Of a stretch of DNA of 64,000 nt, positions 8,673-38,125 are shown piece after piece. The translations under genes were made by a program, and so were the position numbers. Where the stretch lies: assembly GCA_963668695.2 (NCBI GenBank), contig CAXXLQ010000004.1, positions 2,208,001-2,272,000 on the forward strand, read 5' to 3'. Source of the stretch: Vicinamibacteria bacterium (lineage in GTDB: Bacteria; Acidobacteriota; Vicinamibacteria; Marinacidobacterales; Marinacidobacteraceae). Positions within the stretch are counted from its first letter, which is position 1. The number at the start of each line of letters is the position of its first letter. Below the pieces are notes generated by a model. The model saw only the letters and a list, made by a program, of their open reading frames with translations. It did no database searches and was not told the DNA's origin.

Positions 8673-9350
8673 GTCGAGCGGTCCGGGAGCGGGGGCTTAG
8701 TTCTCCATCGGTTCGGAACGCGGCGACCGTCTACGTCAAGCCCCCGCTCCCGAACCGCCCGGCGCTTCGCGCCGGCAATCGAAACTTCCTTGCCCGCCTC
8801 CGGCGGGCGGCGGCAAGTTCCGATTGGTCGTTACTTTTTGTGTGAAAGGGGAGAATCCCCCCTTTCACACATTCCCCCGAAAACGCGGGCAGCGAACGGA
8901 GTTCGCTGCCATCAGTTTTTTGCGCGCTCGGCTAAGCGCCGCCAACAGCAGATGGCGCGCTGGCCCGGGAACGCCGGACCTCTGGTCGGCACCAGGTCGA
9001 GCGGTCGCCGGACGGGGCCTTGATCTGGTGTAGCGTTCGGTCGTGGTTCTGGTTGGAGTTGGGGCCCCGTCCGGGGACCGCCCGGCGCTTCGCGCCGGCC
9101 TTCCGAAGTGCGGCGAGAGCCGCACGGAGATCCCGGAGCGGGAGGGGTTGGGGTCGGGGCACCCGACTCCCAGCCGCTCCTGGCTCGGGAATCGAAACTT
9201 CCTTGCCCGCCTCCGGCGGGCAGAGGCAAGTTCCGATTGGTCGTTGTTGATTTGTGAAAGCGGGGGTGCCCCCCTTTCACACTTTCCCCCCGGTCACGCG
9301 GGCAGCGAACGGAGTCCGCTGCCATTGTTTCTTACGCGCTCGGCTGAGGC
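8673..9350 (+). repeat. Family A multi-hairpin repeat, two tandem units
   Basis: 81-nt variable-loop hairpins at 8678-8758 and 9001-9081, each followed by CCGGCGCTTCGCGCCGG and shared downstream hairpin modules. Confidence 0.85.
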
Positions 9351-9361
9351 GCATCAGCCAC

Positions 9362-9870
9362 GTATCCCATCTCGAACCCAACCATCCGTAGCGACGCGTC
9401 CCTAGTAGTGCGCTTTCCGACCCCGGTGATGGCGTGCACCAGCCTCACACCGCCACTCATCACCAATTGGAGCGCCGGTCAGGAGCGCCGGTCTTCAGGC
9501 CCCCACCGGGAGAACTGGCCAGCATCGCGGCCGCAGGCACGCGAAACTCACGTCCTGTTCACTCCTATTGCACCGACCTAGTCGGGGACGGCGAATCGCA
9601 CGGCTAGCCACCCCCCACGGCGCAGCGACGATCCGCCGTCAACCTCCAGGGCTAGCGACAGCGGAACCGCGTAGGTCCGTCCGTTGTCCCGGTGCCGGGA
9701 AGGCCACCGCCACCACCCGATCTCCAACCCCCAACTATCCGTAGCGACACCGCTCCTACAGTGCGCCGTGCAATCCCGCGTCACGGCGTGCACCAGCCTC
9801 ACACCGCCACTCATCACCCATTGGAGCGCCGACCTCCGGCCCGCATCGCCCGCCGAGAGGCGGGCGATAC
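9362..9870. repeat. Degenerate ~115-bp direct repeats ending in GGAG-type REP (family C-associated)
   Basis: 9365-9478 and 9716-9831 share GGCGTGCACCAGCCTCACACCGCCACTCATCACC.ATTGGAGCGCCG. A diverged reverse-complement copy lies at ~51150-51260. Confidence 0.7.
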
Positions 9871-9946
9871 GGCGTAGCGCCGACTCCCTCGGGCCCCTCA
9901 ACGGAGGCCCGTACTTGGTAGATTCCCACTCCGACAGGACAACACC

Positions 9947-10105
9947 TTGGCGAGCGATACCGCGGCGGAAGCACACAGCAGGCTCTGGGTCTTCGGCCCG
10001 GCACGGGACCTCCTGCTGCTGGTCGCCACCCCGATCCTGATCCTGCCCCTCGCCCTGGCCCTCGGGGGCAGGTTCGGCCGGTACTTCAGGCCCCACTGGC
10101 TGTAG
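9947..10105 (+). pseudogene. 5' fragment of a membrane-protein gene
   Basis: AGGA then TTG; reads MASDTAAEAHSRLWVFGPARDLLLLVATPILILPLALALGG and runs into the antisense strand of the truncated TonB receptor. Confidence 0.55.
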
Positions 10106-11139
10106 CCGATCAGCTCGTCCTTCTCGGAGAGTGCCATGTTCACCTTGGTGTAGTAGTTGCGGAGGATCGCCTCTTCCTGGATCTCATTCGGATCGACACC
10201 CGAGATGGCCCGGTGGGTCAGGTTGTTGTTGTAGGCGAGGAAGAACCAGGCCTTGTCCGTCCAGAGCGGGCCGCCCACGTCGGCGTGCGCCTCCCAGTAG
10301 GTGAGCATGTGGTTCGTGCCCGCGCCCCGGCTCTCGAGCTCGGAGGTGAGGTTGTCGCCCACGAAACCCTCGCCGAGGTAGTCCGCATAGAGCAACGACG
10401 AAACCTCGTTACCGCCGGTCTTGATGTCCATCACGATCGTGTTCCCGGCCCAGGCGTTTTCCACGTCCGCGCCGGCGTTCGAGATGTTGAACTGGTTGAC
10501 GGTCAGGCTGTCCATGTAGAAGCCGAAACCGCCGGTGCTGAAGTTGGAGTCCACGCCGTCAATGACGATGCGGTTCTGGTTCCGGAGCCCGAAAGCGTCG
10601 AACCCGGACTGCTGCGCCTTGTGAGAGCCCGCCACGTCGAAGCCGCGCATCCGGATACCCGGGGTGAGCGCCAGCATGGCGTGGGGATCGGTGGAGTTCG
10701 GAACCTCCAGGATCGCCGTGTCATCGAAGGTGCCCCCGAAGCGGCTGGACTTGACGTCCACCACCGGGGACTCCCCGGTCACGGTCACCGTCTCTGCGAC
10801 GGCTGCCACCCCGAGGGTCTGGTTCACCGTGAAGGTCTGCCCCGTGTTGACGGTTACGCCTTCGCGGACGACGGTACCGAAGCCGCCCAGCTCGAAGGTC
10901 ATCGTGTAGCTGCCGGCAGGGAGACCCTGGAACCGGAACGAGCCGTCCACGTCGGTGACGGCGACGCGGCTGCCGAGAAGCCCGGGGGATTCGAGGGTCA
11001 CCGTGACCCCCGGAAGGACGAGCCCCTGCTCGTCCCGCGCGACCCCGTCGAGTCTTCCGGCGGTGATCTGGGCGGCGAGCGACGCCGGGATCAGGAGCAG
11101 CGCGGCGACCGCCACGGATCGCAGCAGAGTTCGTTTCAT
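10070..11139 (-). pseudogene. Truncated TonB-dependent receptor with N-terminal carboxypeptidase-regulatory-like domain
   Basis: AGGAGG SD, signal peptide, G.V.DEQGLVLPGVTVT, ETVTVTGESPVVDV, plug and first barrel strands (GGPLWTDKAWFF). Protein-like sequence ends after ~355 aa, far short of the usual ~900-1000 aa. Confidence 0.8.
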
Positions 11140-11213
11140 GGGCAAGGCCCTCCTTGACGAGAGGCGATTTGGCTCAAAACTCTATGGGACAACACGAACC
11201 GAGGTCGAAATTC

Positions 11214-11266
11214 GCAAGTCGCGCACCAGGGACCGCTTTTCGAAGACTCATCATAAGTCATTGAAA
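11214..11266 (-). promoter_or_regulatory. Candidate sigma54 -24/-12 promoter with upstream IHF-like site
   Basis: Minus strand TGGTGCGCGACTTGC (GG-N10-GC) at 11228-11214 and TTTCAATGACTTA (one mismatch to WATCAANNNNTTR) at 11266-11254, upstream of the TonB receptor gene. Confidence 0.4.
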
Positions 11267-11390
11267 AAACGAAAGTTGTGTGCCGTCTGAGCGATGGCCT
11301 GTTTCCATTCTCCAAAAAGTTGAATTTCGCTTCGGATTCCCGTTCCCGAAATGGGACGCGTGGAAGCAGGCAAGCTCCATAATTCCCCGC

Positions 11391-12230
11391 GTGAAGCACC
11401 GCACGGCTTCTCCCGAACTCCGGACCCGCCTCGGCGTCGCTCCGCGCATCAACCCGGAGGTTGAGGTTCGAACCAGGGTGGGGTTTCTGCGGGCCTACCT
11501 CGTTGCGAGCCGGCAGCGGAGCCTGTGGCTCGCCGTCTCCGGCGGCGTGGATTCGGCGCTCACCGGGCGGCTTTGTTCCCTCGCGGTCGCCGCCGCCAAC
11601 CGGGACGGGGCGGCGTTGTGTTTCGTGGCGGTGCGGCTTCCCTACGGGAGGCAGCGCGATGCAGCCGATGCCGACCGGGTTCTGAAGTGGATCGAACCCT
11701 CGGAAGTGGTCAGCGTGAATATCAGGAGGGCGGTCACGGCCCTGGAAGCGTCACTCCCGAGAGTCCAGCTGGATGCCAGCTCCCAAGCGTCCTGCGACTA
11801 CGCCCGCGGAAACACCAAGGCCCGGATGCGAATGGCGGTGCAGTACCACCTCGCGAACCTGGACGGCGGCCTGGTCGTGGGGACGGATCATTCCGCGGAG
11901 GCGCTCGTCGGGTTTTTCACCAAGTTCGGTGACGGAGGAGCGGACCTGTGTCCGCTCTTCGGGCTGAGCAAACGGCAGGTACGCCAGTTGGCGACCTATC
12001 TGGGAGCGCCGCCCGAGATCGTGGACAAGGAACCCACCGCCGACCTCGAGGATCTGCGTCCGGGCCTACCCGACGAGGAGGCCCTCGGGATCAGCTACCA
12101 GGAGATCGACGACTATCTGGAGGGACTCCCGGTACCCGTTGCCGTTGCCGACCGGATCGAGGCGATCCACCGCGCCACCGAGCACAAACGGCGCGGACCG
12201 GTGGTCCCGCAGGATACGTGGTGGCGGTAG
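11391..12230 (+). CDS. nadE: NH3-dependent NAD+ synthetase
   Basis: SGGVDS, GNTKARMRM, GTDHSAE, GFFTKFGDG, PTADLE, TEHKR. Start codon uncertain. Confidence 0.95.
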   Translation: MKHRTASPELRTRLGVAPRINPEVEVRTRVGFLRAYLVASRQRSLWLAVSGGVDSALTGRLCSLAVAAANRDGAALCFVAVRLPYGRQRDAADADRVLKWIEPSEVVSVNIRRAVTALEASLPRVQLDASSQASCDYARGNTKARMRMAVQYHLANLDGGLVVGTDHSAEALVGFFTKFGDGGADLCPLFGLSKRQVRQLATYLGAPPEIVDKEPTADLEDLRPGLPDEEALGISYQEIDDYLEGLPVPVAVADRIEAIHRATEHKRRGPVVPQDTWWR

Positions 12231-12238
12231 GGGCCAAG

Positions 12239-12590
12239 GTCGGGCGGTCCGGAAGGGGGGCGCCTGACCGGAACGACAGCCGAACGTTAGTTCTCTTGGT
12301 GGGTGCGCCCCCCTTCCGAACCGCCCGGCGCTTCGCGCCGGCTTCCGAAGTGCGGCGAGAGCCGCACGGAGACCCCGGAGCGGGAGGGGTTGGGGTCGGG
12401 GGACCCGACTCCCAGCCCCTCCTGGCTCGGGAATCGAAACTCCCTTGCGCGCCTTCGGCGCGCGGCGGCGAGTTCCGATTGGTCGTTGTTGATTTGTGAA
12501 AGGGGAGAATTCCCCCTTTCACGCATTCCCCCGAAATCGTCGGCAGCGAACGGAGTTCGCTGCCATTTGTTTCTTCGCGCGGTTGGCCGT
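12239..12590 (+). repeat. Family A multi-hairpin repeat, complete unit
   Basis: 81-nt variable-loop hairpin at 12244-12324 followed by all conserved hairpin modules. Confidence 0.85.
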
Positions 12591-12642
12591 ACGCCACATT
12601 TCCTGAAGCGCGGGGACGGCTTGCACCGCCCCGCGTAGCGGG

Positions 12643-12795
12643 GCGGAAGCGCGTAGTGTTGATCCCTCTTCGGGTGCTGGAGGGGCGCTGGCCTGCCCGG
12701 TGGCGTGAGGCTGGAGGGAGACTACGCGCTTCCGCCGTCGCTGGCCGTGAGGATGGACGGCGCGGCCTTCGCTCGCCTGCGGCGGGCGAAGCGCC
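12643..12795. repeat. Inverted repeat and hairpin downstream of the thioesterase gene
   Basis: GCGGAAGCGCGTAGT...ACTACGCGCTTCCGC (15-bp IR, ~63-nt loop) and TTCGCTCGCC-TGC-GGCGGGCGAA. Confidence 0.5.
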
Positions 12796-12796
12796 C

Positions 12797-13399
12797 CTAC
12801 GCCTGCTGGAGGAGGTAGGTCGCCAGACCGGCGGCGACCACGCGGTCGTTGTCTTCCACGACTTCGATGCGGCAGGAAACGAGCGTGCGGCCCTTCCGCA
12901 CCACCTCGCCGATGGCCAGGAGGTCGCCCTGAACCACCCCCAGGATGTTCACCTTGTATTCCACCAGGCGGATTCCCACCGCGGGGGCCACGGAAGCGGC
13001 GGCGAGGTGCCCGGCGGCCACGCAGAGCGTGCCGATGATTCCTCCCTCAAGCGGACCGGGTTCGGTATTTCTGGTCTCGCCGGGAAGATGGATCCGGGAA
13101 ACACCGTTGTCGGCGTAGTCGAGCCGGAGCCCCGTCTGCCCTGCGATCGGGGCGTTATCGAGTTCTTTTTGCAAACGGCGGCGCAGCGTCAGCCGTTCGC
13201 GCCCGTAGCCGCTCTCGGTCGGTTCGGATTCGCTCAGCACGACCGGTTCGAACTCACGGACCGGATCGGGTCCCGTGTTCGTGGACTTGGCTTCCACCGC
13301 GCCACGGCGGCGTGCGTGGAAGGACTCGGCGGCCGACCGCGTACGCCGGGGAGGGCTTTCGGCCTGCGCTGTGCGCGTGCCGGAGTCGGAGTTGCTCAA
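12797..13399 (-). CDS. PaaI-family hotdog thioesterase-like protein
   Basis: N..GPLEGGII.TL, VEYKVNIL, GEVVRKGRTL, VAAGLATY. N-terminus and start uncertain. Confidence 0.75.
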   Translation of the reverse strand: MSNSDSGTRTAQAESPPRRTRSAAESFHARRRGAVEAKSTNTGPDPVREFEPVVLSESEPTESGYGRERLTLRRRLQKELDNAPIAGQTGLRLDYADNGVSRIHLPGETRNTEPGPLEGGIIGTLCVAAGHLAAASVAPAVGIRLVEYKVNILGVVQGDLLAIGEVVRKGRTLVSCRIEVVEDNDRVVAAGLATYLLQQA

Positions 13400-13599
13400 C
13401 GGATTCGCTCCCCTCGATCGGAGGTCCAGATCCCCCCAGCCGCCGAATCAGCCACAGCAACGCCTAGCGCAAGAGGGGAGCGAAATACAACCGGAAGCCG
13501 AAACCACCGGCCAGTGACGAAGATCACCTAACCGGCCATGTTACCACCGGAAAACGATCCCGGCGCGTAACATTCCGGTTTCTCGACCGGAAGAAAGCA

Positions 13600-15039
13600 A
13601 TGAATCATAATACCAACGAAGCCTTCGACCTCGTGGTCATCGGGAGCGGCCCCGGAGGCTACGTGGCCGCCCTGAAGGCCCGGGCCGCCGGACTACGGAC
13701 GGCGATCGTGGAGAAGGAAGAGCGCTTCGGCGGCACCTGTCTTCACGTCGGCTGCATTCCGAGCAAGGTGTTCCTTCATACCGCGTCGCTGCTCGACGAG
13801 ATCCGGGCGGCGAACAAGGTCGGCATCACGGTGGCGGATCCGGCCCTCGATTGGAACGGACTGAAGCGCCGCAGTCGCCGGGTGATCGCCAAACTCGCCG
13901 GCGGCGTTTCGCTGCTTTTGAAGCGCGCGGGTGTCGAAACAGTTCGGGGATTCGGGAGACTGGCCGGTCCCGGTCGGGTCGAGGTCATCCCCGCGGAATC
14001 CGCCGAGGCGGGCGCCGCGCCCGGGGAGGCAGTGCGGTTCCTCAGTACTCGCAATGTGATCCTCGCGACCGGTTCCGAGGCCAGGACGCTGCCCTTCCTG
14101 CCGGTGGACGGCGATCGGATACTGACCAACGCGGAGATGTTCTCGCTTGATGAGCTTCCCGCCCGGTTAGGCATCATCGGGGCCGGGGCGGTGGGCGCGG
14201 AGTTTGCCTCCATGTTCCGTAGCTACGGCTCCCGCGTGGAACTCTTCGAGGTGCTGCCCCGCGTGCTGCCGCTCGAAGATGCTGAAGTCTCCGAAGTGGT
14301 GGGCAGGGCGTTTCGCAAACGGAAGATCCAGGTGCGAACCGAAGCCCGAGTGGAGGCCGCCGACGTCGTGGAAACGGGCGTTCAGGTCCGCTACCGCGTG
14401 GGTGAGGAGACCACGACAGCCGAATACGACCGGCTGCTGGTAGCGGTGGGCCGGGCTCCGCGGACGACGGATATCGGGCTCGAGACCGTCGGAGTCGAGC
14501 TGGAAAGGGGCGGCTTCATCCCGGTGGACTTAGCGTGCCGGACCAGGGCGCAAGGCGTCTTCGCCATCGGGGACGTCTTGGGGAGCGCCCAGCTGGCCCA
14601 CGTGGCCTCCGCCGAGGCGGAGGTGGCGGTAGCGACCATCGCCGGCCAGGACGTTCGGCCCCTTCGGCGGGACCGGATGCCGGCGGCCACCTACTGCGTA
14701 CCGGAGGTCGGCTCGGTCGGGCTTACCGAGGAAGCGGCCGCCGCTGCCGGTCACGAGATCCGGGTGGGCCGCTTCCCATTCGCCGCGAACAGCAAGGCGA
14801 ACATCCTGGGAGATCCGACCGGTTTCGTGAAGGTGGTCGCCGAGGCGCGCTATGGAGAGGTGCTCGGAGTCCACATCGTCGGCCCGCACGCCACCGACCT
14901 GATCGCCGAAGCGGTGGTCGCGCTCGAGCACGAAGCGACCCTGGAGTCGCTCGCGCGCAGCGTCCATCCTCACCCCACGCTTTCCGAAGCGGTGTCCGAA
15001 GCGGCGCTCGCTGCTTCCGGCACGCCCCTTCACGTTTAA
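13600..15039 (+). CDS. lpdA: Dihydrolipoyl dehydrogenase (E3)
   Basis: GSGPGGY, GGTCLHVGCIPSK redox motif, GAGAVG, HPHPTLSE. Confidence 0.96.
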   Translation: MNHNTNEAFDLVVIGSGPGGYVAALKARAAGLRTAIVEKEERFGGTCLHVGCIPSKVFLHTASLLDEIRAANKVGITVADPALDWNGLKRRSRRVIAKLAGGVSLLLKRAGVETVRGFGRLAGPGRVEVIPAESAEAGAAPGEAVRFLSTRNVILATGSEARTLPFLPVDGDRILTNAEMFSLDELPARLGIIGAGAVGAEFASMFRSYGSRVELFEVLPRVLPLEDAEVSEVVGRAFRKRKIQVRTEARVEAADVVETGVQVRYRVGEETTTAEYDRLLVAVGRAPRTTDIGLETVGVELERGGFIPVDLACRTRAQGVFAIGDVLGSAQLAHVASAEAEVAVATIAGQDVRPLRRDRMPAATYCVPEVGSVGLTEEAAAAAGHEIRVGRFPFAANSKANILGDPTGFVKVVAEARYGEVLGVHIVGPHATDLIAEAVVALEHEATLESLARSVHPHPTLSEAVSEAALAASGTPLHV

Positions 15040-15713
15040 CAGCCTGTGGCGAAACCAACGCGGCCCAGTTCTCCCGGTGGGGGCTCGACCGGCGATCCAT
15101 CCCGGCTGAACCACTGCGCTTCGCTGCGTTCTGCGTTGCGTTTCGGTCGAAATACACCCGGGCCAGTTCTCCCGGTGGGGGCTCCTCCCTCACGCGCCTT
15201 GTCAGTCGGGCGTCTCGCCCCCGCCGGGAGAACTGGCCAACCTCGGCGCTCACGTGGGTTTCACCACCGGCTGTTAGCAGCCCGTGGACAAAGTGAACCG
15301 GCATTTGAGCCGCGATCCATCCCGGCCAAACAGCCTGTGATGAAACCCACGCGGCCCAGTTCTCCCGGTGGGGGCTCGGCCGGCGAACCATCCCGGCTGA
15401 CCGCGTCGCTTCGCGCCGCTCATCGTTGCGTTTCGGTCGAAATACACCCGGGCCAGTTCTCCCGGTGGGGGTTCCTCCCTCACGCGCCTTGTCAGTCGGG
15501 CGTCTCACCGGCCTCGGCTCTCACGCGGGTTCCACCACCGGCTGTTCACCGCCCCGCTTCGCGGTGCTCATCGTTGCGCATCGGTCGGAATACGCTTGGT
15601 ATTCCTCCCTTGCGCGCCTTGTCAGCCGGGCCCCCACCGGGAGGACTGGCCCCACCGGGAGAACTGAGCCTCGCCGCTCTCGGTGCTCCCCCCACTTTAT
15701 CCACGGGCTGCTG
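15037..15713. mobile_element. Family B MITE, two adjacent or composite copies between lpdA and lipB
   Basis: TA-ACAGCCTGTGGCG...CACCACCGGCTGT-TA, then GCAGCCCGTGGACAAAGTG...CACTTTATCCACGGGCTGC, sharing the internal modules of the other copies. Confidence 0.8.
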
Positions 15714-16460
15714 ATGCGCCATTCGGGCGAGGCCGGCGCCAGTACCCCCGCAGCACCGCCGCTCTGGCGACTCGACGTGCGGCCGCTCGGCTACCGTCGC
15801 GCCTGGGAGTTGCAGCGGGAACTGGTCGGACGTCGGCAGCGGGAAGAAATCCCGGATGTACTTCTTCTCACCGAGCATCCGCCGGTTTTCACGCTGGGGA
15901 AGAGCGCCCACCGCGAACACCTCCTGGCGCCGCCGGCAGAACTCGCCGGTCGGGGCGCCGAGGTGATCGAGACGGATCGTGGCGGAGACGTGACCTTTCA
16001 CGGCCCCGGCCAGCTCGTCGCTTACCCGATCGTGCATCTGGCCGGCTGGAAGAAAGACGTCCACGCCTACCTGCGGGCGCTGGAGGCGGCCGCCATCGAA
16101 ACGGCGGCGTGGTTCGGGACGGCGGCGACGCGCCGTGAGGGGCTGACCGGGGTGTGGTGCTGCGCCGGAGGCGCTCCCCGCAAACTGGCTTCGATCGGGG
16201 TCCGGGTGTCGCGCTGGGTGGCCTCGCACGGCCTGGCTCTCAACGTGACCACCGATCTCGGCTGGTTCTCGCACATCGTGCCGTGCGGCATCCGGGATTC
16301 GGCGACCACCTCGCTCGAGCTCGAAACCGCGCGCTCGCTCACGGTGGACGCGGTGGCGGATCGGCTGGCGGTCTCGCTCGCCGGCGTCATGGGGCGCCGG
16401 ATTGCGGCCGCGCCGGATTCCTTCGCCGCCGAGTTCGGCTGCTCGCGCGCGCCTTCGTAG
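15714..16460 (+). CDS. lipB: Lipoyl(octanoyl) transferase
   Basis: EHPPVFTLG, DRGGDVTFHGPGQLVAYP, KLASIG, SHGLALNV, IVPCG. Confidence 0.95.
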   Translation: MRHSGEAGASTPAAPPLWRLDVRPLGYRRAWELQRELVGRRQREEIPDVLLLTEHPPVFTLGKSAHREHLLAPPAELAGRGAEVIETDRGGDVTFHGPGQLVAYPIVHLAGWKKDVHAYLRALEAAAIETAAWFGTAATRREGLTGVWCCAGGAPRKLASIGVRVSRWVASHGLALNVTTDLGWFSHIVPCGIRDSATTSLELETARSLTVDAVADRLAVSLAGVMGRRIAAAPDSFAAEFGCSRAPS

Positions 16461-16483
16461 GGGAACCCACCGCCAGGAACGCC

Positions 16484-17464
16484 GTGCCCGTCACCTACTT
16501 CGAGGCCATCCGCCGGGCGCTGCGCTCGGAGATGGAACGCGATCCCCGGGTGATCCTGCTCGGCGAAGACATCGGACTCTACGGCGGTGCCTTCCGTTTG
16601 ACGGACGGCTTCCTCGATGACTTCGGACCGGAGCGGGTACTCGACACTCCAATCAGCGAGGAGGGATTCACCGGGGTTGCCGTGGGCGCGGCGCTTGCCG
16701 GATTCCGTCCGGTCGTGGAGTTCCAGTTCATGGATTTCATCGCGAGTGCGTTCAACATGGTCACGAACTTCGCCGCGAAGAGCCGCTACCGCGCCGGCGC
16801 GGCAGTTCCCATCGTGCTTCGCGGCCCTTCCGGCGCCGGAGTCCGCGCCGGACCGTTCCATTCACAAAGTCCCGAGGCCCACTTTGCCCACACTCCGGGG
16901 ATCAAGGTGGTGGCGCCCGCGACCGCGCCGGACGCCGCGGGCCTCCTCCGGGCCGCGATCCGCGACGACGATCCGGTTCTGTTCCTCGAGCACAAACGGC
17001 TCTATCGGAGCCTCCGGGTTCCAGATGACGAGTTCGAGCGAGCGCCGGAAGTGATTCCCTTGGGAAGAGCGGCGATTCGGCGGGCAGGGGACGCACTCAC
17101 GATCGCCTCCTACGGGGCGGCGGTATGGATGGCGCTCGAGGCCGCGGAACGACTGGCTGCCGAGGGGGTCGAGGCGGAGGTGCTGGACCTGCGCTGTCTG
17201 GTCCCGCTCGATCGGGAGGCGGTCTTCGATTCCGTCCGGCGCACCAGCCGGTTGCTGGTGCTCCACGAGGCCAACCTGACCGGGGGTTTCGGCGGCGAGA
17301 TCGCAGCGCTGGCCGCCGAACACCTCTTCGGTGATCTGGACGCGCCAGTGACCCGGATCGCGGCGGCCGATACCCCGGTGCCCTATGCCGCGGAACTCGA
17401 GGATGCGGTGCTGCCGAACGCCACCCAGGTCGTCGAAGCGGCGCGCCGGTTGGTGCGGTACTGA
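16484..17464 (+). CDS. 2-oxo acid dehydrogenase E1 beta subunit
   Basis: GEDIG..GG.F, DTPISE, EFQFMDF, GPFHSQSPE, FLEHKRLY. GTG start at 16484. Confidence 0.93.
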   Translation: MPVTYFEAIRRALRSEMERDPRVILLGEDIGLYGGAFRLTDGFLDDFGPERVLDTPISEEGFTGVAVGAALAGFRPVVEFQFMDFIASAFNMVTNFAAKSRYRAGAAVPIVLRGPSGAGVRAGPFHSQSPEAHFAHTPGIKVVAPATAPDAAGLLRAAIRDDDPVLFLEHKRLYRSLRVPDDEFERAPEVIPLGRAAIRRAGDALTIASYGAAVWMALEAAERLAAEGVEAEVLDLRCLVPLDREAVFDSVRRTSRLLVLHEANLTGGFGGEIAALAAEHLFGDLDAPVTRIAAADTPVPYAAELEDAVLPNATQVVEAARRLVRY

Positions 17465-17539
17465 TTCCCAGGCCTGCTCTTGGCGAGGCAGTCCTGACCA
17501 GCGCCCCGTTCCGGTGGCGTACAGCGGTCCGAGCCGAGA

Positions 17540-17785
17540 AGCGGCTGCCGGCAGCGAACTTTGTTCGCTGCCCGCGTTATCGGGGGAAAGTGTGAAAGGG
17601 GGGATTCTCCTCTTTCACAAGAAGGTAACGACAAATCGGAACTCGCCGCCGCGCGCGGGGAGCGCGCAAGGGAGTTTTGATTTGCGGCGCGCAGCGCCGG
17701 GCGGTCCGGGCACGGGGCGAACCAAGCAGACCCATGCCACGAAACACCACCGGCAATGCTGGTGCGCCCCGTTCCCGGACCGCTA
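17540..17785 (-). repeat. Family A multi-hairpin repeat (minus orientation, abutting the lipA stop)
   Basis: 83-nt variable-loop hairpin at 17701-17783 plus reverse-complement copies of the AATC...GATT, GTGAAAG...CTTTCAC and GGCAGCGAAC...GTTCGCTGCC modules. Confidence 0.8.
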
Positions 17786-18706
17786 GGGGATCTGGTTCGC
17801 GGCGTGGTACGAACTTCTCACCAGCGGGCCCGCCTCCACGTGACGGAGCCCGATCGCCTTGCCCCGCTCGGCAACCGCGCGGAACTCGTCCGGCGGGACA
17901 AAGCGCTCGACGGGCAGATGCGCGGGAGTGGGCTGGAGGTATTGGCCCGCGGTGAGAATGTCCACGGAATTCCGCACGAGGTCTGCCATTAGCGAATCCA
18001 GTTCGTCGGCGGTCTCCCCGAGTCCGAGCATCACTCCGGTCTTGGTGAGCGCTTCCGGCCGGAGTTCCTTGGCGCGGCGGAGCAGGTCCAGCGAGCGCTG
18101 GTAGCGGGCGCCGGGACGGACGGCCTTGTAGAGGCGCGGCACCGTTTCCACGTTGTGGTTGAGGACCTCCGGGGCCTCCGCCATCACGATGGCGAGCGCC
18201 GCCGCATCCCCCTGGAAATCCGGAATCAACACCTCGACGGTGGTTTCCGGACAGCGCCGCCGGACCGCGCGGATGGTTTCTGCGAAGATTCCGGCGCCCC
18301 CGTCGGCGAGGTCGTCGCGGTTCACCGAAGTGATCACCGCATGGCGGAGATCCATGAGTTCGACGGCGTCCGCGACCCGCTCGGGTTCCTCGAGATCGAG
18401 GCCCACCGGGCGCCCGGTGGTCACTGCGCAGAACCGGCAGGCACGCGTGCAGATGTCACCCAGGATCATGAACGTCGCGGTTCCCTGGCCCCAGCATTCC
18501 GCGACGTTCGGGCAGCGCGCCTCTTCGCACACCGTGTGGAGGTTCTTCTCGCGAAGCAGCCTTCTGAGGCGCGCCCAGGCGGGGCCGGAGGGCATCCGCA
18601 CCTTGAGCCAATCCGGCCGGGGATGGCGCGCGGGTTTCGGTCCCGCTCCGGCGGTGGGGCTCAGCCCCGATCCGATGACCGGCAGGGGAACGACGGCGCC
18701 TGTCAA
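17783..18706 (-). CDS. lipA: Lipoyl synthase
   Basis: CEEARCPNVAEC, CTRACRFC, NHNVETV, VRSSYHA. Confidence 0.97.
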   Translation of the reverse strand: MTGAVVPLPVIGSGLSPTAGAGPKPARHPRPDWLKVRMPSGPAWARLRRLLREKNLHTVCEEARCPNVAECWGQGTATFMILGDICTRACRFCAVTTGRPVGLDLEEPERVADAVELMDLRHAVITSVNRDDLADGGAGIFAETIRAVRRRCPETTVEVLIPDFQGDAAALAIVMAEAPEVLNHNVETVPRLYKAVRPGARYQRSLDLLRRAKELRPEALTKTGVMLGLGETADELDSLMADLVRNSVDILTAGQYLQPTPAHLPVERFVPPDEFRAVAERGKAIGLRHVEAGPLVRSSYHAANQIP

Positions 18707-20088
18707 GGACGGAGGTCGCCCTCGGGCCAGTTTTCGAGGCGGGACTTCACGGCCGCCATGAACTGGTCCGCGACCGCGCCGTCGATCAGGCGATGGTCGA
18801 ACGACAGCGCCAGGAACACCATGGAACGCACCGCGATGGCGTCCCCGTCCACGACCACCGGCCGCTTGTGAACGCCCCCGACTCCCAGAATCGCGACCTG
18901 CGGTTGGGCGATGATGGGAGTGCCGAAGAGCGCCCCGAAGGGACCCGGGTTCGTGATCGTAAAGGTGCCGCCCTGAACCTCGTCAGGGGTAAGCCCCCCG
19001 GTGCGGGCCCGCTTGGCCAGATCGGTGATTCCCCGGGCCAGCCCCATGAAGTTCCTTTCGTCGGCGCGCGCGAGTACCGGCACGATGAGCCCGTCCGGAA
19101 GGGCAACGGCGATGCCCAGATTCACGTTCCGGTGGTACACGACGTGGTCATCGCCGAGCGAAGCGTTCAGGACCGGGAACTCGCCGAGCGCGTCAATCGT
19201 CGCCTGGGCGAAGAACGGCATCAGGGTGAGCCGCACGCCGGCGCGCTCCTCGAAGGCCGTCCCGTTCGAGGCCCGGACGGCGACCACCCGCGACACGTCG
19301 ACCTCGAACACCGTGGTGACGTGAGCCGAGGTCCGGCGGGAGCGGATCATGTGATCGGCAATGGACCGCCGCATGTGGGAGAGTGGTTCGGTCCGGTCGC
19401 TTTCCGAGGCTTCCGGAACCTCGGGAAACGGCTCGGCTGGAACCAGGGCAGGCGTCGGAACGTCGTCGCTCGTCTCCGCCGGGGGCGCGGCGGGAGCCGG
19501 GAGCGGTTCGACCGCCGCGGGTTCCGGAGGAGCGGAGGGAGCGGCGGTTTCGGCCTGGGCTGCATCGCGGCCTTCCAGGAAGGCGAGCATGTCCTGTTTG
19601 CTGACCCGTCCGCCTTCGCCGGTCCCGGGAATGCTGGCGAGGTCCACGCCCTGTTCCCGCGCCATGCGCCGCACGAGCGGCGAACTGCGCGGCTGACGGC
19701 CGACGCTCTTGGCGCGCGCCCCCTCCCCATCGAGCGAGGGCGCCGGCGCTTCGGAGGCGGCCTCGCCGCCGCCGTCATCGGTCTCCGGAGCACCGGCCGG
19801 TGTCGGTTCGCCCGCCGGCTCCTGCGGTTCGCCGGGGGACCAGACTTCGCCTTCCGCCGCAATCCGGCCGACGACGGTGTTCACCGTGACGGTTTCGCCC
19901 TCCGGAACCAGGATCTCTACGAGACGCCCGGTGAGCGCCGCGGGAACCTCGGTATCCACCTTGTCGGTCGCGATGTCGAAGAGGGGATCATCCCGTTCGA
20001 CGGTGTCGCCGACCGCGACCCGCCACTTGGTGATCGTCCCCTCGGTGATGCTCTCGCCCATCTGGGGCATGATGATGTCGCTGGGCAC
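18703..20088 (-). CDS. 2-oxo acid dehydrogenase E2 dihydrolipoamide acyltransferase
   Basis: Lipoyl domain PQMGES...TDKV, E3-binding SSPLVRRMARE...GTG.GGRVSK.D, catalytic DHRLIDG. Confidence 0.95.
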   Translation of the reverse strand: MPSDIIMPQMGESITEGTITKWRVAVGDTVERDDPLFDIATDKVDTEVPAALTGRLVEILVPEGETVTVNTVVGRIAAEGEVWSPGEPQEPAGEPTPAGAPETDDGGGEAASEAPAPSLDGEGARAKSVGRQPRSSPLVRRMAREQGVDLASIPGTGEGGRVSKQDMLAFLEGRDAAQAETAAPSAPPEPAAVEPLPAPAAPPAETSDDVPTPALVPAEPFPEVPEASESDRTEPLSHMRRSIADHMIRSRRTSAHVTTVFEVDVSRVVAVRASNGTAFEERAGVRLTLMPFFAQATIDALGEFPVLNASLGDDHVVYHRNVNLGIAVALPDGLIVPVLARADERNFMGLARGITDLAKRARTGGLTPDEVQGGTFTITNPGPFGALFGTPIIAQPQVAILGVGGVHKRPVVVDGDAIAVRSMVFLALSFDHRLIDGAVADQFMAAVKSRLENWPEGDLRP

Positions 20089-20126
20089 GGGTCGGGAATT
20101 CTATTGCGAGCGGAGTGGCGGCTTCC

Positions 20127-22139: not shown

Positions 22140-22179
22140 TCCGGAAGCGTAGTCTCCCGTCCGCATGGCCCCCGGCCCG

Positions 22180-23195
22180 GCAGCCTGTGGTGGAACGCCA
22201 CGCGGCCCAGTTCTCCCGGTGGGGGCTCGGCCGGCGATCCATCCCGGCCAACAGTCGGTGATGAAACCCACGCGGCCCAGTCTCCCGGTGGGGGCTCGGC
22301 CGGCGATTCATCCCGGCCAAACAACCGGTGGTTCTCCCGGTGGGGGCTCGGCCGGCGATTCATCCCGGCCAAACAACCGGTGGTGGAACCCACGCGGCCC
22401 AGTTCTCCCGGTGGGGGCTCGGCCGGCGATCCATCCCGGCCAAACAACCGGTGGTGGAACCCACGCGGCCCAGTTCTCCCGGTGGGGGCTCGGCCGGCGA
22501 TCCATCCCGGCCAAACAACCGGTGGTGGAACCCACGCGGCCCAGTTCTCCCGGTGGGGGCTCGGCCGGCGATCCATCCCGGCTGAACCGCGTCGCTGCGC
22601 GCCGCTCATCGTTGCGTTTCGGTCGAAATACACGCGGTATTCCTCCCTCACGCGCCTTGTCAGCCGGGCGCCTCCCCGGCCTCGGCGCTCACGCGGGTTC
22701 CACCACCGGCTGTTCACCGCGTCGCTGCGCGCCGCTCGTCGTTGCGTTTCGGTCGAAATACACCCGGGCCAGTTCTCCCGGTGGGGGCTCCTCCCTCACG
22801 CGCCTTGTCAGCCGGACCCCCACCGGGAGAACTGCGCCTCCCCGGCCTCGGCGCTCACGCGGGTTCCACCACCGGCTGTTCACCGCGTCGCTGCGCGCCG
22901 CTCGTCGTTGCGTTTCGGTCGAAATACACCCGGGCCAGTTCTCCCGGTGGGGGCTCCTCCCTCACGCGCCTTGTCAGCCGGACCCCCACCGGGAGAACTG
23001 GGCCTCCCCGGCCTCGGCGCTCACGCGGGTTCCACCACCGGCTGTTCACCGCGTCGCCGCGCGCCGCTCGTCGTTGCGTTTCGGTCGAAATACACCCGGG
23101 CCAGTTCTCCCGGTGGGGGCTCCTCCCTCACGCGCCTTGTCAGCCGGGCGCCTCCCCGGCCTCGGCGCTCACGCGGGTTCCACCACAGGTTGCTA
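22180..23195. mobile_element. Family B MITE expanded by tandem 71-bp and 166-bp repeats
   Basis: Ends GCAGCCTGTGGTGG and CCACCACAGGTTGCTA; 71-bp units at 22370, 22441 and 22512 (plus degenerate ones); 166-bp period from ~22689. Confidence 0.85.
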
Positions 23196-23247
23196 GACGG
23201 AATCGGGCGCGATAATGCGGGAAGTCCGCCGCACGAACCACCGTTTC

Positions 23248-24888: not shown

Positions 24889-24891
24889 TCC

Positions 24892-26298: not shown

Positions 26299-26305
26299 AC
26301 GCCGT

Positions 26306-27484
26306 ATGCCAATGGAGATCGTCCTCGCCGGAGCCCGGCGCACCCCGATCGGCCGGTTCGGAGGCTCCCTCGCTTCGCTGAGCGCGCCGGAGCTGGGAGC
26401 GGCCGCGGCCCGCAGCGCTCTCGAAGCCGCCGGCGTCCCCGCCGAGGCGGTGGACGAGGTCATCTTCGGCAACGCCCGGCAGGCCGGGGTCGGTCCGAAT
26501 CCCGCCCGTCAGGTCGGGCGGCGGGCCGGTCTCGCGGACCGGGTGCCGGCCCGGACCGTGAACCAGGCGTGCGCCTCGGGACTCCGGGCGATTCTGGACG
26601 CCGCCGCTTCCGTTCGGCTGGGAGACGCCGGGGTGGTCCTCGCCGGGGGCACCGAGAGCATGAGCAACACCCCTTTCCTGCTTCCGTCGGTCCGCTGGGG
26701 GCAACGGTTCGGCGACGGCTCGCTCGACGACGGGATGTACCGCGACGGTTTTCATTGCCCGCTCGCGGATCAGCTCATGGGCGAGACCGCGGAAACGCTG
26801 GCCGACCAGTACGGCCTCTCCCGCGACGAATGCGACCGCTATGCGGCGGCCAGCCAGAACCGCGCCGAGGCGGCGCGCTCGACGGGGCGCTTCGACGCCG
26901 AGATCGCTCCGGTTCGGATCGAGACCCGCCGGGGTGAGGGAGAGGTCGGCAGCGACGAGCACCCCCGCGACGGCGTGACGCCGGAGTCACTGGCGAAACT
27001 CCGGCCCGTGTTCCGGAAGGACGGGGTGGTCCACGCCGGGAACTCCTCGGGCATTACCGACGGCGCCGCGGCGGTGGTCGTGCTTTCCGCGGACCGGGCG
27101 GCCGAGCTTGGGGTTCGGCCGATGGCGCGCCTGGTGGGGTACGCGACCGCGGGCGTGGACCCCCGGGTGATGGGCATCGGACCGGTTCCGGCGGTACGCG
27201 ACCTCCTGGCCCGCACCGGGGAGAGTCTGGACAACGTGGCGCTCGTGGAGTTGAACGAGGCGTTCGCTCCCCAGGTCCTCGCTTGCGCCCGGGATCTGGA
27301 CCTCGATCCCGAGCGGCTGAACGTGAACGGCGGCGCCATCGCCCTCGGCCATCCCATCGGCGCCACCGGGGCGCGGATCGTCGTCACGCTGCTGCACGAG
27401 ATGGAGCGGCGCGATGTGCGGTACGGCATTGCCACGCTATGCGTCAGCGGCGGCATGGGTGTGGCGGCGCTGCTGGAGCGTTGA
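26306..27484 (+). CDS. Acetyl-CoA C-acyltransferase (thiolase)
   Basis: NQACASG, ELNEAFA, NGGAIALGHPIGATG, LCVSGGMG. Confidence 0.95.
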   Translation: MPMEIVLAGARRTPIGRFGGSLASLSAPELGAAAARSALEAAGVPAEAVDEVIFGNARQAGVGPNPARQVGRRAGLADRVPARTVNQACASGLRAILDAAASVRLGDAGVVLAGGTESMSNTPFLLPSVRWGQRFGDGSLDDGMYRDGFHCPLADQLMGETAETLADQYGLSRDECDRYAAASQNRAEAARSTGRFDAEIAPVRIETRRGEGEVGSDEHPRDGVTPESLAKLRPVFRKDGVVHAGNSSGITDGAAAVVVLSADRAAELGVRPMARLVGYATAGVDPRVMGIGPVPAVRDLLARTGESLDNVALVELNEAFAPQVLACARDLDLDPERLNVNGGAIALGHPIGATGARIVVTLLHEMERRDVRYGIATLCVSGGMGVAALLER

Positions 27485-27930
27485 GCGGTTCGGAAGGGGG
27501 GCTCTCCAGCATGGTGACAATGGAAGGTGAGCCGGGGAACCGGTGAGCCCCCCTTCCGAACCGCCCGGCGCTTCGCGCCGCGCCGACCCATCGAGCGGTC
27601 CGGAAGCGGGAGCACATCTCTGACCCCGTTCGGGTTGTCGAGCGAGAGCGAGTTGAGCCCCCGCTCCCGAACCGCCCGGCGCTTCGCACCGCGTTTCCGA
27701 AGTGCGGCGAGAGCCGCACGGAGACCCCGGAGCTGGAGGGCTGGGGTCGGGGGACCCGACTCCCAGCCCCTCCTGGCTCGGGAATCGAAACTCCCTTGCG
27801 CGCCTGCGGCGCGCGACGGCGAGTTCCGATTCGTCGTTACCGATTATGAAAGGGGGGAATCCCCCCTTTCACACTTTCCCCCGAATACGCGGGCAGCGAA
27901 CAGAGTTCGCTGCCATGAGTTTTTGCTCGC
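27482..27930 (+). repeat. Family A repeat with two tandem variable-loop hairpins
   Basis: Hairpins at 27485-27564 (80 nt) and 27595-27675 (81 nt) with different loops, then the full module series. Confidence 0.85.
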
Positions 27931-27948
27931 TTGGTGGTGCGTCTACAC

Positions 27949-28204
27949 GGGAACGCCGGTGTTCACACCGGCACCGGGAGAACTGGCCAGCATCGCGGCC
28001 GAAGGCCGCGAGACTCCCGCCGCCACGCTCGCCGATTAACCCGGCCGATGCGGGGACGGCGAAACGCCGTGCGGACGCGTGGGTGGCGTTGGGCCATCCT
28101 CGTTGCCTGCTGCGCCATGCGGGGATTGGCGACGGGAGTTTCGCTCCCCTGCGGGGAGTGATGCTGGCCAGTTCTCCCGGTGGGGGCCTGAAGACCGGCG
28201 CTCC
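27949..28204. repeat. Family C REP doublet (REPIN-like)
   Basis: GGAACGCCGGTGTTCACACCGGCA...TGAAGACCGGCGCTCC; interior closely matches 50939-51156. Confidence 0.8.
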
Positions 28205-29269: not shown

Positions 29270-29310
29270 TGATCTTCCCCCGGGGTCTTCCCCCGGGCCG
29301 CTCCGGCGTC

Positions 29311-33611: not shown

Positions 33612-33635
33612 CGGCGCCCCGCACACCCCTTTTCC

Positions 33636-35411: not shown

Positions 35412-35593
35412 CAGCCTGTGGTGGAACCCGGGTGAGCGCCGAGGCCGGTGAGGCGCCCGGCTGACAAGGCGCGTGAGGGAGGAATACCTAGTGTATTTCG
35501 ACCGAAACGCAACGATGAGCGGCGCGAAGCGACGCGGTTCAGCCGGGATGGATCGCCGGCCGAACGCCGCCTGGGTTTCACCACAGGCTGTTA
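35409..35593. mobile_element. Family B MITE, 185-bp core copy between hflX and rsgA
   Basis: TA-ACAGCCTGTGGTGGAACCC...GGGTTTCACCACAGGCTGT-TA. Confidence 0.85.
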
Positions 35594-36561
35594 AGGCCGC
35601 CTGCCTCCCGGGAGAGGCGAATCAGGCTCTCGTAGCGGGCCGGGTCGGCCTTTCCGGCGGTGACCGCCGCCCGGACCGCGCAATCGGGTTCGGTCCGATG
35701 GGAACAGTCGGGGAAGCGGCAGTCGTCGGCGTAGGGGGCCAGATCGGGATGGGCGGTCCGGATGCGCGTCGCTGTCAGCCCGTCGAGGCCGAGCGCGCGG
35801 ATGCCCGGGGTGTCCACCAGCTCGCCTCCACCCGGAAGCGGGATCAGTTCGGCTGCCGTCGTGGTGTGGCGGCCCCTACCTCTGCGATCGAGTCCGCCGC
35901 TCCGCCGGCCGGGCACCCCGAGCGCCGCGAGCAGTTCGGTTTTCCCGACTCCCGAGTGGCCGAAGAGCACAGCCCGGCCGCGCGCCACACCGCTCCGGAA
36001 GGCCTCGATCCCCTCTCCGCTGCGCGTGCTCGTCCGATGGACTTCGAGTTCCAGCCGGCGATAGGGAACGAGATCGTGGGCAAGTCTGACGATTTCGTGT
36101 TCGCCTGCGAGATCGAGCTTGTTGAAGACGAGGACCGGGGTGACGCCCGCATCGAACGCGACCACCAGGGACCGGTCGAGGAAACCCGTCCGGTACGGCG
36201 GTTCCAAAAAAGCCGAGACGATGTAGCAGCGATCGAGATTGGCCGCGAACACGTGCATTTCCCGGCGTTCGGGTGGTCCGACAGCTCGGCGGAGCGCGTT
36301 GTGCCGGGGACGCACCGCGGTGATGCGCCCACTGGAGGTTCCCGTTCGGGAGGCGTGCGGTCGGCCCGGTTCGATCTCCTCGACGAGGACTTCATCCCCC
36401 ACCACGGCGGCGGCCCCGTCCGGGCGGGTATCTCCCCGGCTGAAGAGGCGCCCCCCGAGGGAGCAGCGCCAAAGGGATTCCGGCTCGCCGTGCGCGCCGG
36501 GCGGGAGCCGGACCATCGCTCCCTTTCGGCTCACCCGGATCACGGTCCCGGAGCGCTCCAT
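35578..36561 (-). CDS. rsgA: Ribosome small subunit-dependent GTPase A
   Basis: OB fold VVGDEV, NKLD, GHSGVGKT, GRHTTT, DTPG, CRFPDCSHRTEPDC Zn site. Confidence 0.95.
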   Translation of the reverse strand: MERSGTVIRVSRKGAMVRLPPGAHGEPESLWRCSLGGRLFSRGDTRPDGAAAVVGDEVLVEEIEPGRPHASRTGTSSGRITAVRPRHNALRRAVGPPERREMHVFAANLDRCYIVSAFLEPPYRTGFLDRSLVVAFDAGVTPVLVFNKLDLAGEHEIVRLAHDLVPYRRLELEVHRTSTRSGEGIEAFRSGVARGRAVLFGHSGVGKTELLAALGVPGRRSGGLDRRGRGRHTTTAAELIPLPGGGELVDTPGIRALGLDGLTATRIRTAHPDLAPYADDCRFPDCSHRTEPDCAVRAAVTAGKADPARYESLIRLSREAGGLNSLW

Positions 36562-36580
36562 CGGTAGGATGCTAACTTCC

Positions 36581-38125
36581 GTCGAGCGGTCCGGAAGGGG
36601 GGCGCCTGTTCTGTTTGAGGGTTCGTGGCGGAGCTTGATTGGAGCTGCGCCCCCTTCGTGTCGAGCGGTCCGGGAGGGGGGCGTCCGTTCCGTTGGGGGT
36701 TCGTGGCGGAGCTTGATTGCAGCTGCGCCCCCCTCCCGAACCGCCCGGCGCTTCGCGCCGGGTTTCCGGAGTGCGGCGAGAGCCGCACGGAGACCCCGGA
36801 GCAGGAGGGGTTGGGGTCGGGGGACCCGACTCCCAGCCGCTCCTGGCTCGGGAATCGCAACTCCCTCGTGCGCCGGAGGCGCACTTCGGCGAGTTCCGAT
36901 TCGTAGTTGCGTTTTTGTGAACGGGGGGCGGTAGCCCCCCTTTCACGCTTTCCCCCCGGTCAGGCGGGCAGCGAACGGAGTTCGCTGCCATTGTTTTTGC
37001 TCGTTCAGGGCATCGACATCGACTGTGTGTCAATGGGCTTCGAAAATGTCCCACTTTCTTGGAGTGATTGTGTGCCGACGGAGGGGAGGGTTGACGGGAT
37101 CCGGAGGGGTTTCGGCCGGATAGGCGGCGGGGGATGAGTTCGGGGATGGGCGCGTCGGGCGCGGACGGAGTTCGCTGCCGTTGTTTTTTGCGCGCTCGCC
37201 TAAGCGCCGCCAACAGCAGATGGCGCGCAGGCCCGGGAACGCCGGTCTTCAGACCGGCACCGCGGCCCGGAGGGCCGCGAAACCGCGTGTAGCCGTTCCT
37301 CCGGATGGCGCGCTGACCCCGGAACGCCCGGCGCTCCGCGCCGCGCTTCCGGAGTGCGGCGAGAGTCGCACGGAGACCCCGGAGCAGGAGGGGTTGGGGT
37401 CGGGGAACCCGACTCCTGGCCGCTCCGTAGCTCGGGCTTCCGAAGTGGGGCGCGAGCCGCACGGAGACCCCGGAGCAGGAGGGGTTGGGGTCGGGGAACC
37501 CGACTCCTGGCCGCTCCTGGCTCGGGAATCGAAACTTCCTTGCGCGCCTCCGGCGCGCGGTGGCGAGTTCCGATTGGTCGTTTCCTTCTTGTGAAAGGGG
37601 GGCGATGGCCCCCCTTTCGCACCTTCCCCCCTCGTGTCGAGCGGTCCGGAACCGGGGCCCATAGACGGGATCGGTGGACTGGTGCCTTCTGAGCTGGAAC
37701 GAGGGGCCCCGTTCCCGAACCGCCCGGCGCTTCGCGCCGGCAATCGCAACTCCCTTGCGCGCCTCCGGCGCGCGGTGGCGAGTTCCGATTGGTCGTTGTC
37801 AATTTGTGAACGGGGGGCAGTGGCCCCCCTTTCACACTTTCCCCCCTCGTGTCGAGCGGTCCGGAACCGGGGCCCATAGACGGGATCGGTGGACTGGTGC
37901 CTTCTGAGCTGGAACGAGGGGCCCCGTTCCCGAACCGCCCGGCGCTTCGCGCCGGCAATCGCAACTCCCTTGCGCGCCTCCGGCGCGCGGTGGCGAGTTC
38001 CGATTGGTCGTTGTCAATTTGTGAACGGGGGGCAGTGGCCCCCCTTTCACACTTTCCCCCCGGTCATGCGGGCAGCGAACCGGAGGTTCGCTGCCGTCAG
38101 TTTCTTGCTTGCTCCGCGCCGCGCC
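36581..38125 (+). repeat. Large family A cluster (~1.5 kb) including a 215-bp tandem duplication and a family C REP
   Basis: Variable-loop hairpins at 36586 (truncated), 36665-36744, 37641-37723 and 37856-37938; REP at 37235-37287. Confidence 0.88.

Follow-up and report, generated by a model that had tools for sequence, protein, structure and literature searches.

The repetitive extragenic palindromic (REP) sequences and bacterial interspersed mosaic elements (BIMEs) of Escherichia coli and other Enterobacteria are high-copy extragenic palindromes, arranged behind genes in mosaic clusters with other motifs. Protection of mRNA 3' ends, attenuation and control of translation have been proposed as their roles. 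In Pseudomonas, REP doublets forming hairpins (REPINs) are moved by REP-associated tyrosine transposases (RAYTs). The Correia elements of Neisseria, ERIC/IRU, RUP and the BOX elements of pneumococcus are small non-coding repeats with long hairpins, which are co-transcribed and can supply terminators or processing sites. For the evolution of REPs gene conversion was reportedly proposed, judging by a 1988 title of Higgins and co-workers. In E. coli, 260 of 496 REPs are located within 15 nt of a stop codon, and REPs in this position stall ribosomes and lower translation (excerpt of PMC12306157, citing Liang et al.). Here we describe Family A, a dispersed repeat detected in a stretch of 64,000 nucleotides of a Vicinamibacteria genome. 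This stretch, G000:C4:2208001-2272000, is called the window, with G000 as the source assembly; coordinates without contig prefix are window positions. Family A is no guide-RNA system; it adds an undescribed member to a kind of repeat already well known from bacteria. We consider it probable that these non-coding, modular intergenic repeats, specific to their lineage, belong to the REP/BIME type and act as a portable gene-end cassette with drifting loops.

When the composite 8996-9345 was compared by BLAST with G000 and related genomes, Family A resolved into three units, with joints overlapping by 4 nt. U1 consists of a hairpin of ~80 nt (GC-rich stem of roughly 19 bp, loop of about 40 nt), followed by the invariant mini-hairpin CCGGCGC-TTC-GCGCCGG. 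U2 is optional, about 90 nt long with two hairpins, and often tandem. U3 comprises about 145 nt with three hairpins, the last being a canonical intrinsic terminator. Within loci the units are co-oriented, except for one locus with an inverted U2. They follow the order U1-(U2)n-U3, sometimes tandemly repeated; four mixed loci with U2 after U3 deviate from it. Copies of REP-C, a short palindrome (GGA[AG]CGCCGG-loop-CCGGCA) with at least 202 copies in G000, are interspersed in these mosaic clusters. The ordered three-unit grammar, the 3' terminator and the polar docking to gene ends described below were missed in an earlier note on this DNA, made from the sequence alone. It had reported hairpins followed by an ordered series of further hairpins, with whole modules cleanly present or absent. 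Both the order and the clean modularity were confirmed, and the composites fold as strings of hairpins (8997-9335 as RNA, z = -6.6; 8674-8925 as DNA, z = -9.1, both against shuffles). The window contains the following copies:

8674-8774, plus strand: U1 with hairpin 8678-8758 (81 nt) and mini-hairpin, 2 nt past the TGA of the open reading frame (ORF) 8354-8671 (nhmmer, fold)
8776-8918, plus strand: U3 with three hairpins, the last terminator-like (GGCAGCGAAC-GGA-GTTCGCTGCC and a T run, 8888-8910)
8997-9097, plus strand: U1 with hairpin 9001-9081, preceded by a REP-C copy at 8967-8992
9100-9188, plus strand: U2 with the hairpins GTGCGGC-GAGA-GCCGCAC and GGAGCGG..GGGGTCGGG..CCCGACTCC..CCGCTCC
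9188-9330, plus strand: U3 with terminator-like last hairpin
12240-12340, 12342-12430 and 12430-12571, plus strand: U1, U2 and U3, the hairpin 13 nt past the stop of the NAD synthase gene (end 12230)
17685-17785 and 17547-17682, minus strand: U1, then U3; the first U1 bases overlap with the TAG that ends the lipoyl synthase gene (17783-18706, minus)
27482-27580, 27591-27691, 27694-27781 and 27781-27922, plus strand: U1, U1, U2 and U3; GCGGT begins directly behind the TGA of the thiolase gene (end 27484)
about 36581-36620, 36661-36760, 36763-36851 and 36851-36996, plus strand: truncated U1, U1, U2 and U3, not behind a co-oriented gene because rsgA (35578-36561) lies on the minus strand
37305-37343, 37346-37434 and 37437-37525, plus strand: first part of an array, with a 3' fragment of U1, U2 and U2
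37525-37648 and 37637-37739, plus strand: second part of the array, with U3 positions 1-118 and U1
37741-37863, 37852-37954 and 37956-38103, plus strand: third part of the array, with U3 positions 2-118, U1 and a full U3
37305-38103, plus strand: the whole array (nhmmer profile matches)

Copies were collected with iterated nhmmer profiles for the three units, and overlapping matches were removed. G000 (4.10 Mb, 67% GC, four contigs, C1-C4; completeness 91.7%, contamination 9.3%) contains 83 U1, 143 U2 and 107 U3, in total 333 units, which are distributed over 139 loci. Most frequent are U1-U3, with 33 loci, single U2 (24), single U3 (18) and U2 arrays of up to nine. Genes were called with our own codon-usage caller (82% coding) and tRNAs with ARAGORN (n = 57). 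Since 130 of the 139 loci do not overlap with called genes, the units are extragenic high-copy palindromes. Self-BLAST revealed near-identical duplicated blocks in the assembly: C1 and C4:310-389 kb (about 99.5% identity), C4:13-123 kb and C4:3783-3897 kb (about 99%), and C3 and C4:3505-3527 kb (97.6%). Identities of 97.6-99.5% together with the contamination of 9.3% suggest co-assembled strain haplotypes, and the blocks are treated as such. They inflate the repeat counts slightly and offer natural near-isogenic comparisons; without them 80 U1, 117 U2 and 102 U3 remain at 127 loci.

The nine GCGGT...ACCGC hairpins reported before are all present at their coordinates, with 80-83 nt and folding energies of -41.8 to -58.0 kcal/mol. 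That inventory was complete except for the truncated copy 36581-36620 and the 3' fragment 37305-37343. The motif given as following each hairpin, CCGGCGCT(T/G)CGC(G/A)CCG, was recovered in the alignment. Genome-wide, the 3' anchor of the hairpin occurs 101 times with at most three mismatches, and in 77 cases a complementary 5' arm is found 78-92 nt upstream. The supposed fixed length is indeed tight, as 54 of these 77 copies measure 79-81 nt within a range of 78-92 nt. The individual lengths are 78 nt (2 copies), 79 (13), 80 (15), 81 (26), 82 (4), 83 (8), 84 (3), 86 (1), 91 (3) and 92 (2). With a modal length of 81 nt, the U1 hairpin lies outside the short-unit range of REPs (about 20-40 nt).

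The claimed covariation of both stem arms was tested in two sets of copies and held in both. In 70 non-redundant copies the own arms pair at 17.96 of 20 positions, compared with 14.79 for arms mixed across copies, and two or three types of Watson-Crick pair are found at each of positions 8-13 and 18-19. The second set, an alignment of 44 sequences, combined eight of the nine window copies (the duplicate 37852-37954 was left out) with 36 of 37 non-redundant copies from loci of other genomes. The latter loci were retrieved via the exact 3' anchor, so that the invariance of the anchor is partly given by construction. In this alignment 96.8% of the cells are paired, against 85.4% after shuffling. 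Two-sided changes were found in 10 of 17 stem pairs, with 104 cells against 31.9 expected, a value reached by none of 500 shuffles. Sliding the partner column by 1-3 positions lowered the pairing to 39-52%. Rfam at gathering score detected two tRNAs in the window and no match to Family A; at E <= 1 only models of miRNA precursors appeared, with 23-28 bits against cut-offs of 106-150.

U3 ends with GGCAGCGAAC-NNN-GTTCGCTGCC and a T-rich tail, the stem having 10 bp with 7 GC pairs. In a scan of window 8001-28000, the three top-ranking terminator-like sites were all U3 hairpins. Terminal stem and T-rich tail are kept in 93 copies, including a compensated change from GGCAGC/GCTGCC to GGCGGC/GCCGCC. 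Judged from its sequence, the terminator would stop transcription. Regarding the folding strand, one U3 hairpin contains two G.U pairs conserved on the sense strand (58/74 and 38/71 copies), and G.U exceeds A.C with 226:98 in U2 and 248:133 in U3. Both observations favour folding of the sense strand. The strand counts were taken from U2 and U3, as the profile-column alignment of U1 is not structural.

U1 docks to gene ends in a polar manner. Among the 73 copies leading a locus, 34 have their first base at -1 to +15 nt from the stop codon or tRNA end of a co-oriented gene; only two stand at 16-104 nt from the gene end, and 16 beyond 200 nt. Four further copies 'overlap' the upstream gene by 22-33 nt, where called ORFs probably run into the hairpin. 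Six copies are docked to tRNA genes (Val, His, two Leu, two Ser), and in several cases the stop codon stands in for the first bases of the unit (cTGAGCGGT, ccTAGCGGT). Of 59 loci reaching from U1 to U3, 42 have an upstream feature in the same orientation, which in 31 cases lies at -27 to +12 nt from the first base of the unit. The 3' edge shows no docking, with the next feature at medians of 252 and 318 nt. This feature is on the opposite strand in 30 of the 59 loci, compared with 864 of 3089 (28%) of all gene ends (p = 2e-4). Within the window, docking was seen behind a small ORF of no assigned function and behind the genes of NAD synthase, lipoyl synthase and thiolase; the other 40 scanned ORFs are ordinary. 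The tRNA genes of the window, at 43989-44060 (plus) and 45869-45943 (minus), are both without a Family A unit after them.

The loops had been described as unrelated between loci, apart from local duplications. This view was not upheld, as for 55 of the 77 loops the identity to another loop of the genome exceeds 0.604, the 99.9th percentile of a shuffled null. By single-linkage clustering the loops fall into groups of 13, 10, 7 and 5 loops, four groups of 3, three of 2 and 24 singletons. Members of a group are dispersed along the chromosome, the subfamilies of G000 were found again in other species, and a multiple alignment showed a weak consensus throughout the loop. We infer that the loop carries no information and drifts neutrally.

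Turnover was followed in related genomes (G001, G004, G008 and G010 among them) and between the haplotypes. For the site comparison, 250-nt upstream flanks of the U1 copies were matched to 400 kb each of G001 and G004. Eight orthologous pairs with complete hairpins were obtained. In four the loops are 86-98% identical at 94-97% identity of the coding flanks; in the other four they are 43-58% identical, no better than unrelated loops (null mean 48%). Behind the ORF ending at 8671, U1 is present in five of six species with varying stem and loop types, of which G008 and G010 share one stem type, and in the sixth species REP-C stands directly after the stop codon. At other orthologous sites the relatives carry a U1 cut short, a U1 fused by deletion to the U3 terminator, REP-C or other repeats. 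At the G004 site orthologous to window 27484, a stretch of 51 nt (GCGGTCC...GGACCGC) follows the stop directly, where in G000 and G001 the thiolase gene is followed by U1; the stretch may represent what is left of a U1 or a forerunner of one. In G001 (C17:2400000-2406400), the closest relative, about 16 kb consisting largely of tandem U1-U3 arrays take the place of 1.1 kb between two genes in G000.

The C1 and C4 haplotypes, 99.5% identical, differ by a U2 cleanly present or absent between ...GCGCCGGC and AATCG. The unit is flanked by CGGC/CGGG, which could equally be microhomology. In one of these haplotypes U1 is joined to U3 position 118, the same joint as in the window array. Behind the same tRNA-Leu, the hairpins of C3 and C4 diverge at about 40% of their positions, three compensated stem pairs (GTGG/CCAC and CCAG/CTGG) among them, while the flanks are identical on both sides. 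An inversion of the hairpin interior was rejected as the cause of this difference by eye on the sequences. The replacement of hairpin interiors suggests that copies undergo gene conversion or template switching with one another, and the arrays suggest unequal crossing-over.

Family A occurs in three genera only, all of one Vicinamibacteria family. When public genomes were scanned for exact matches to the 3' anchor, 30 stretches were found, all in metagenome-assembled genomes of Candidatus Marinacidobacterium, Vicinamibacteria or Acidobacteriota. By BLAST the composite was detected in all 15 other genomes of the genus, in four of nine genomes of other genera in the family and in none of 16 from two other families of the order. 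A covariance model, as proposed earlier, was built for U1 and matched 20 of 151 genomes sampled across the class. These are G000, 15/15 other members of the genus and 3/3 and 1/1 genomes of two sister genera, with 0/8 in the other genera of the family. None of the 123 genomes from 18 other families of the class was matched. In the literature the genus name appeared in no paper, and among the papers listed on Acidobacteria, symbionts and repeats none dealt with elements of this kind.

For the gene-end cassette the following mechanism can be proposed. Transcription of the upstream gene or tRNA would run on into the cassette, which would form the 3' tail of the transcript. At 0-15 nt past a stop codon, U1 would fold into a strong stem-loop that could block 3' exonucleases. 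It could also act on the terminating ribosome, as described for E. coli REPs equally near to stops. U3 would then end transcription. Such roles resemble those proposed for REPs and BIMEs. Copies may spread and be replaced by some copy process, together with gene conversion or recombination between the units' conserved borders, and unequal crossing-over may build the arrays. Either selection acting on the folded strand or repair templated from arm to arm might maintain the stem pairing.

Several points weigh against this reading. In 34 of 70 copies the sense strand of the U1 stem has a C.A mismatch at position 6, which on the other strand would be a U.G pair, so that folding of the sense strand is not favoured for U1. 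Docking is not universal, as 17 of the 59 composite loci stand behind a feature on the opposite strand, and one window locus lies upstream of a divergent gene. Furthermore, REP-C docks alike: a stop codon lies no more than 15 nt from its 5' side in 25 of 145 cases, but from its 3' side in none of 92. Docking may hence be a general property of hairpin repeats in G000 and not a function of U1. On C4, 36 of 80 U1 and 36 of 102 U3 fall at 2.0-2.4 Mb, with U2 distributed differently. Thus 45% of the U1 copies are found in 10% of the chromosome, which looks more like local spread than like selection for function. U1 is also far longer than a REP, and no cognate enzyme was found for it. Finally, we infer transcription, termination, the effects on mRNA and translation and the mode of spread from sequence features.

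A link of the placement to replication orientation was rejected, since the zone at 2.0-2.4 Mb is located mid-replichore by GC skew and has no tie to origin or terminus. Other repeats were noticed besides. In the window, a separate family at 15000-15700 and 22100-23200 consists of tandem units of 71 and 166 nt with the inverted ends CCCCACCGGGAGAACTG / CAGTTCTCCCGGTGGGG. Outside the window, at G000:C4:2803874-2826790, a tandem array of 23 kb has a period of about 351 nt at 89-94% identity and is possibly a giant repetitive gene.

Among the other explanations, a selfish, non-autonomous element moved in trans, similar to miniature inverted-repeat transposable elements (MITEs), survives best, although we regard it as rather unlikely. 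The position at gene ends would then reflect tolerated or targeted insertion, and terminator and hairpins would have no host function. Identical loop subfamilies at unrelated loci, the sharp 5' border at TCGAGCGGT, the strong clustering at 2.0-2.4 Mb and the variable presence between species and near-identical haplotypes agree with this explanation. In addition, related U1 loops tend to travel with related U3, as seen for distant copies (0.837 against 0.788 identity, permutation p about 0.004). By eye, the composite ends share a short inverted match of only about 7 nt (TCGAGCG...CGCTCGG). Candidates for terminal inverted repeats are this match and the U1 arms, which are inverted repeats themselves. 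A possible source of transposase exists in G000, where IS630-type DDE_3 matches occur at three places.

On the other hand, no target-site duplication and no clean empty site were detected at the four best candidate sites aligned in G001 and G004, which carry truncated U1 or other repeats, and no shared flanking duplication, TA included, was seen among the 83 listed 5' junctions. An autonomous parent was not found either: between U1 arms there was no coding insert and no consistent spacing of 0.3-4 kb in G000 and 400 kb each of G001 and G004 (a loose search for the 5' motif, with 514 matches, mostly by chance). Self-BLAST of G000 revealed no multi-copy insertion sequence (IS) of 1-2.5 kb. The strictly polar docking and the orientation demand more than tolerance of insertion. 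The earlier suggestion of a non-autonomous element with structure and neutrally drifting loops fits, as indicated by the four orthologous sites with 86-98% identical loops; a mobilising enzyme, a target-site duplication and a clean empty site, however, were not found.

It is doubtful, but conceivable, that U1 is an exchangeable hairpin cap, placed on the ends of genes and tRNAs and renewed there by a dedicated process, perhaps a hairpin-specific recombinase or replication-coupled template switching between copies, with the interior swapped and the flanks untouched. This idea derives from the hairpin swap behind tRNA-Leu in C3 and C4, from the four of eight orthologous sites with loops at the level of unrelated ones and from the polar docking of REP-C.

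An element moved by a RAYT like the REPINs, with the U1 arms as inverted REPs, is improbable. Like the Pseudomonas REPINs, U1 forms hairpins of about 80-110 nt with two conserved inverted arms and a less conserved middle or spacer, and it occurs extragenically in high-copy populations of diverging copies. One or two Y1_Tnp genes, the domain of RAYT and IS200, were detected in 13 of the 15 other genomes of the genus. However, G000 (completeness 91.7%) and the genus members G004 and G015 have no Y1_Tnp match, yet many copies. None of six RAYT loci examined carries U1, whereas five carry REP-C, which forms inverted arrays on both sides of the RAYT in two of the six, the classical RAYT-REP arrangement. 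REP-C is thus the true REP of the lineage. Moreover, the U1 arms are by eye no palindromic REPs themselves, and U1 is fused to further units. IS110 elements are known to target REPs. The single IS110-family gene of G000 lies inside a REP-C copy; the element (G000:C4:480899-484372, about locus positions 1190-3000) is inserted in the REP-C hairpin with GGTC at both junctions.

Very little speaks for a guide- or spacer-bearing structured RNA or single-stranded DNA, a constant scaffold with a target-recognising loop of 40 nt, which the earlier note had put forward. The fixed hairpin length, the conserved foot and top and the variable loop would fit, as would the 24 of 77 loops that are singletons in G000. 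This reading is largely refuted, as most loops belong to diverging subfamilies common to loci and species, and the drift of orthologous loops is about as fast as that of their flanks. The loops are gradually diverging homologues, an outcome that the earlier note had itself named as contradicting a guide, and the reading is therefore unsupported. BLAST of the loops found nothing outside the family. Against G000 with the family copies masked, the loops reached a median of 28.2 bits, the same as shuffled loops, and two outliers were unmasked partial family copies. Two window loci had no match in 50,697 phage records and one window locus none in 72,556 plasmid records; in viral contigs, where the hairpin anchor only was searched, it was absent. 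An effector is also missing: no RAYT, IS110, TnpB or reverse transcriptase gene is consistently linked to the copies, G000 shows no reverse transcriptase match and no TnpB match over the cut-off, and, in agreement with the earlier note, no Pfam family of cas, reverse transcriptase or transposase was detected in the 44 ORFs scanned in the window.

A folded recombination site of the integron attC type, with the hairpin interior exchanged as a cassette by a site-specific recombinase, is hardly credible either, since its likeness (a folded site right behind ORF stops, conserved ends, a variable centre of constrained length, a recurrent stem mismatch, and interiors differing sharply between genomes or haplotypes despite identical or 95-97% identical flanks) is opposed by the lack, by eye, of RYYYAAC/GTTRRRY core sites in the conserved ends of the alignment, by copies behind housekeeping genes and tRNAs across the chromosome instead of cassette arrays, and by the absence of an integrase beside the copies, although no search was aimed at integrases.

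The portable gene-end cassette of REP/BIME type has several practical consequences. Stretches of Family A break gene callers and assemblies, which concerns annotation, and copy number and hairpin alleles vary between near-identical haplotypes, which may be used for strain typing. The family also bears on the old question whether such repeats are selfish, useful or both.

Compared with the described systems, Family A shares with Correia, ERIC/IRU, RUP and BOX that small dispersed non-coding repeats fold into long hairpins. It differs in its modular order and stop-codon docking, and neither a partner IS nor a target duplication, TA or other, was found. The difference from the REPs and BIMEs of E. 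coli lies in the hairpin of 78-92 nt with a loop of 40 nt instead of 20-40 nt, in the fixed order of units ending in a terminator, in the lack of sequence similarity and in the RAYT of the lineage, which goes with REP-C and is not flanked by U1. Common to both are the high-copy extragenic palindromes in mosaic clusters with other motifs behind genes, and about half of the copies within 15 nt of the upstream stop (260/496 in E. coli according to the excerpt of PMC12306157, 34/73 for U1). No new kind of system is revealed. Docking in two unrelated repeat families of one genome, U1 and REP-C, at the frequency of E. coli, suggests a general rule, and an uncultured marine, probably host-associated lineage of Acidobacteria has its own analogue of the enterobacterial REPs and BIMEs, equipped with a portable terminator.

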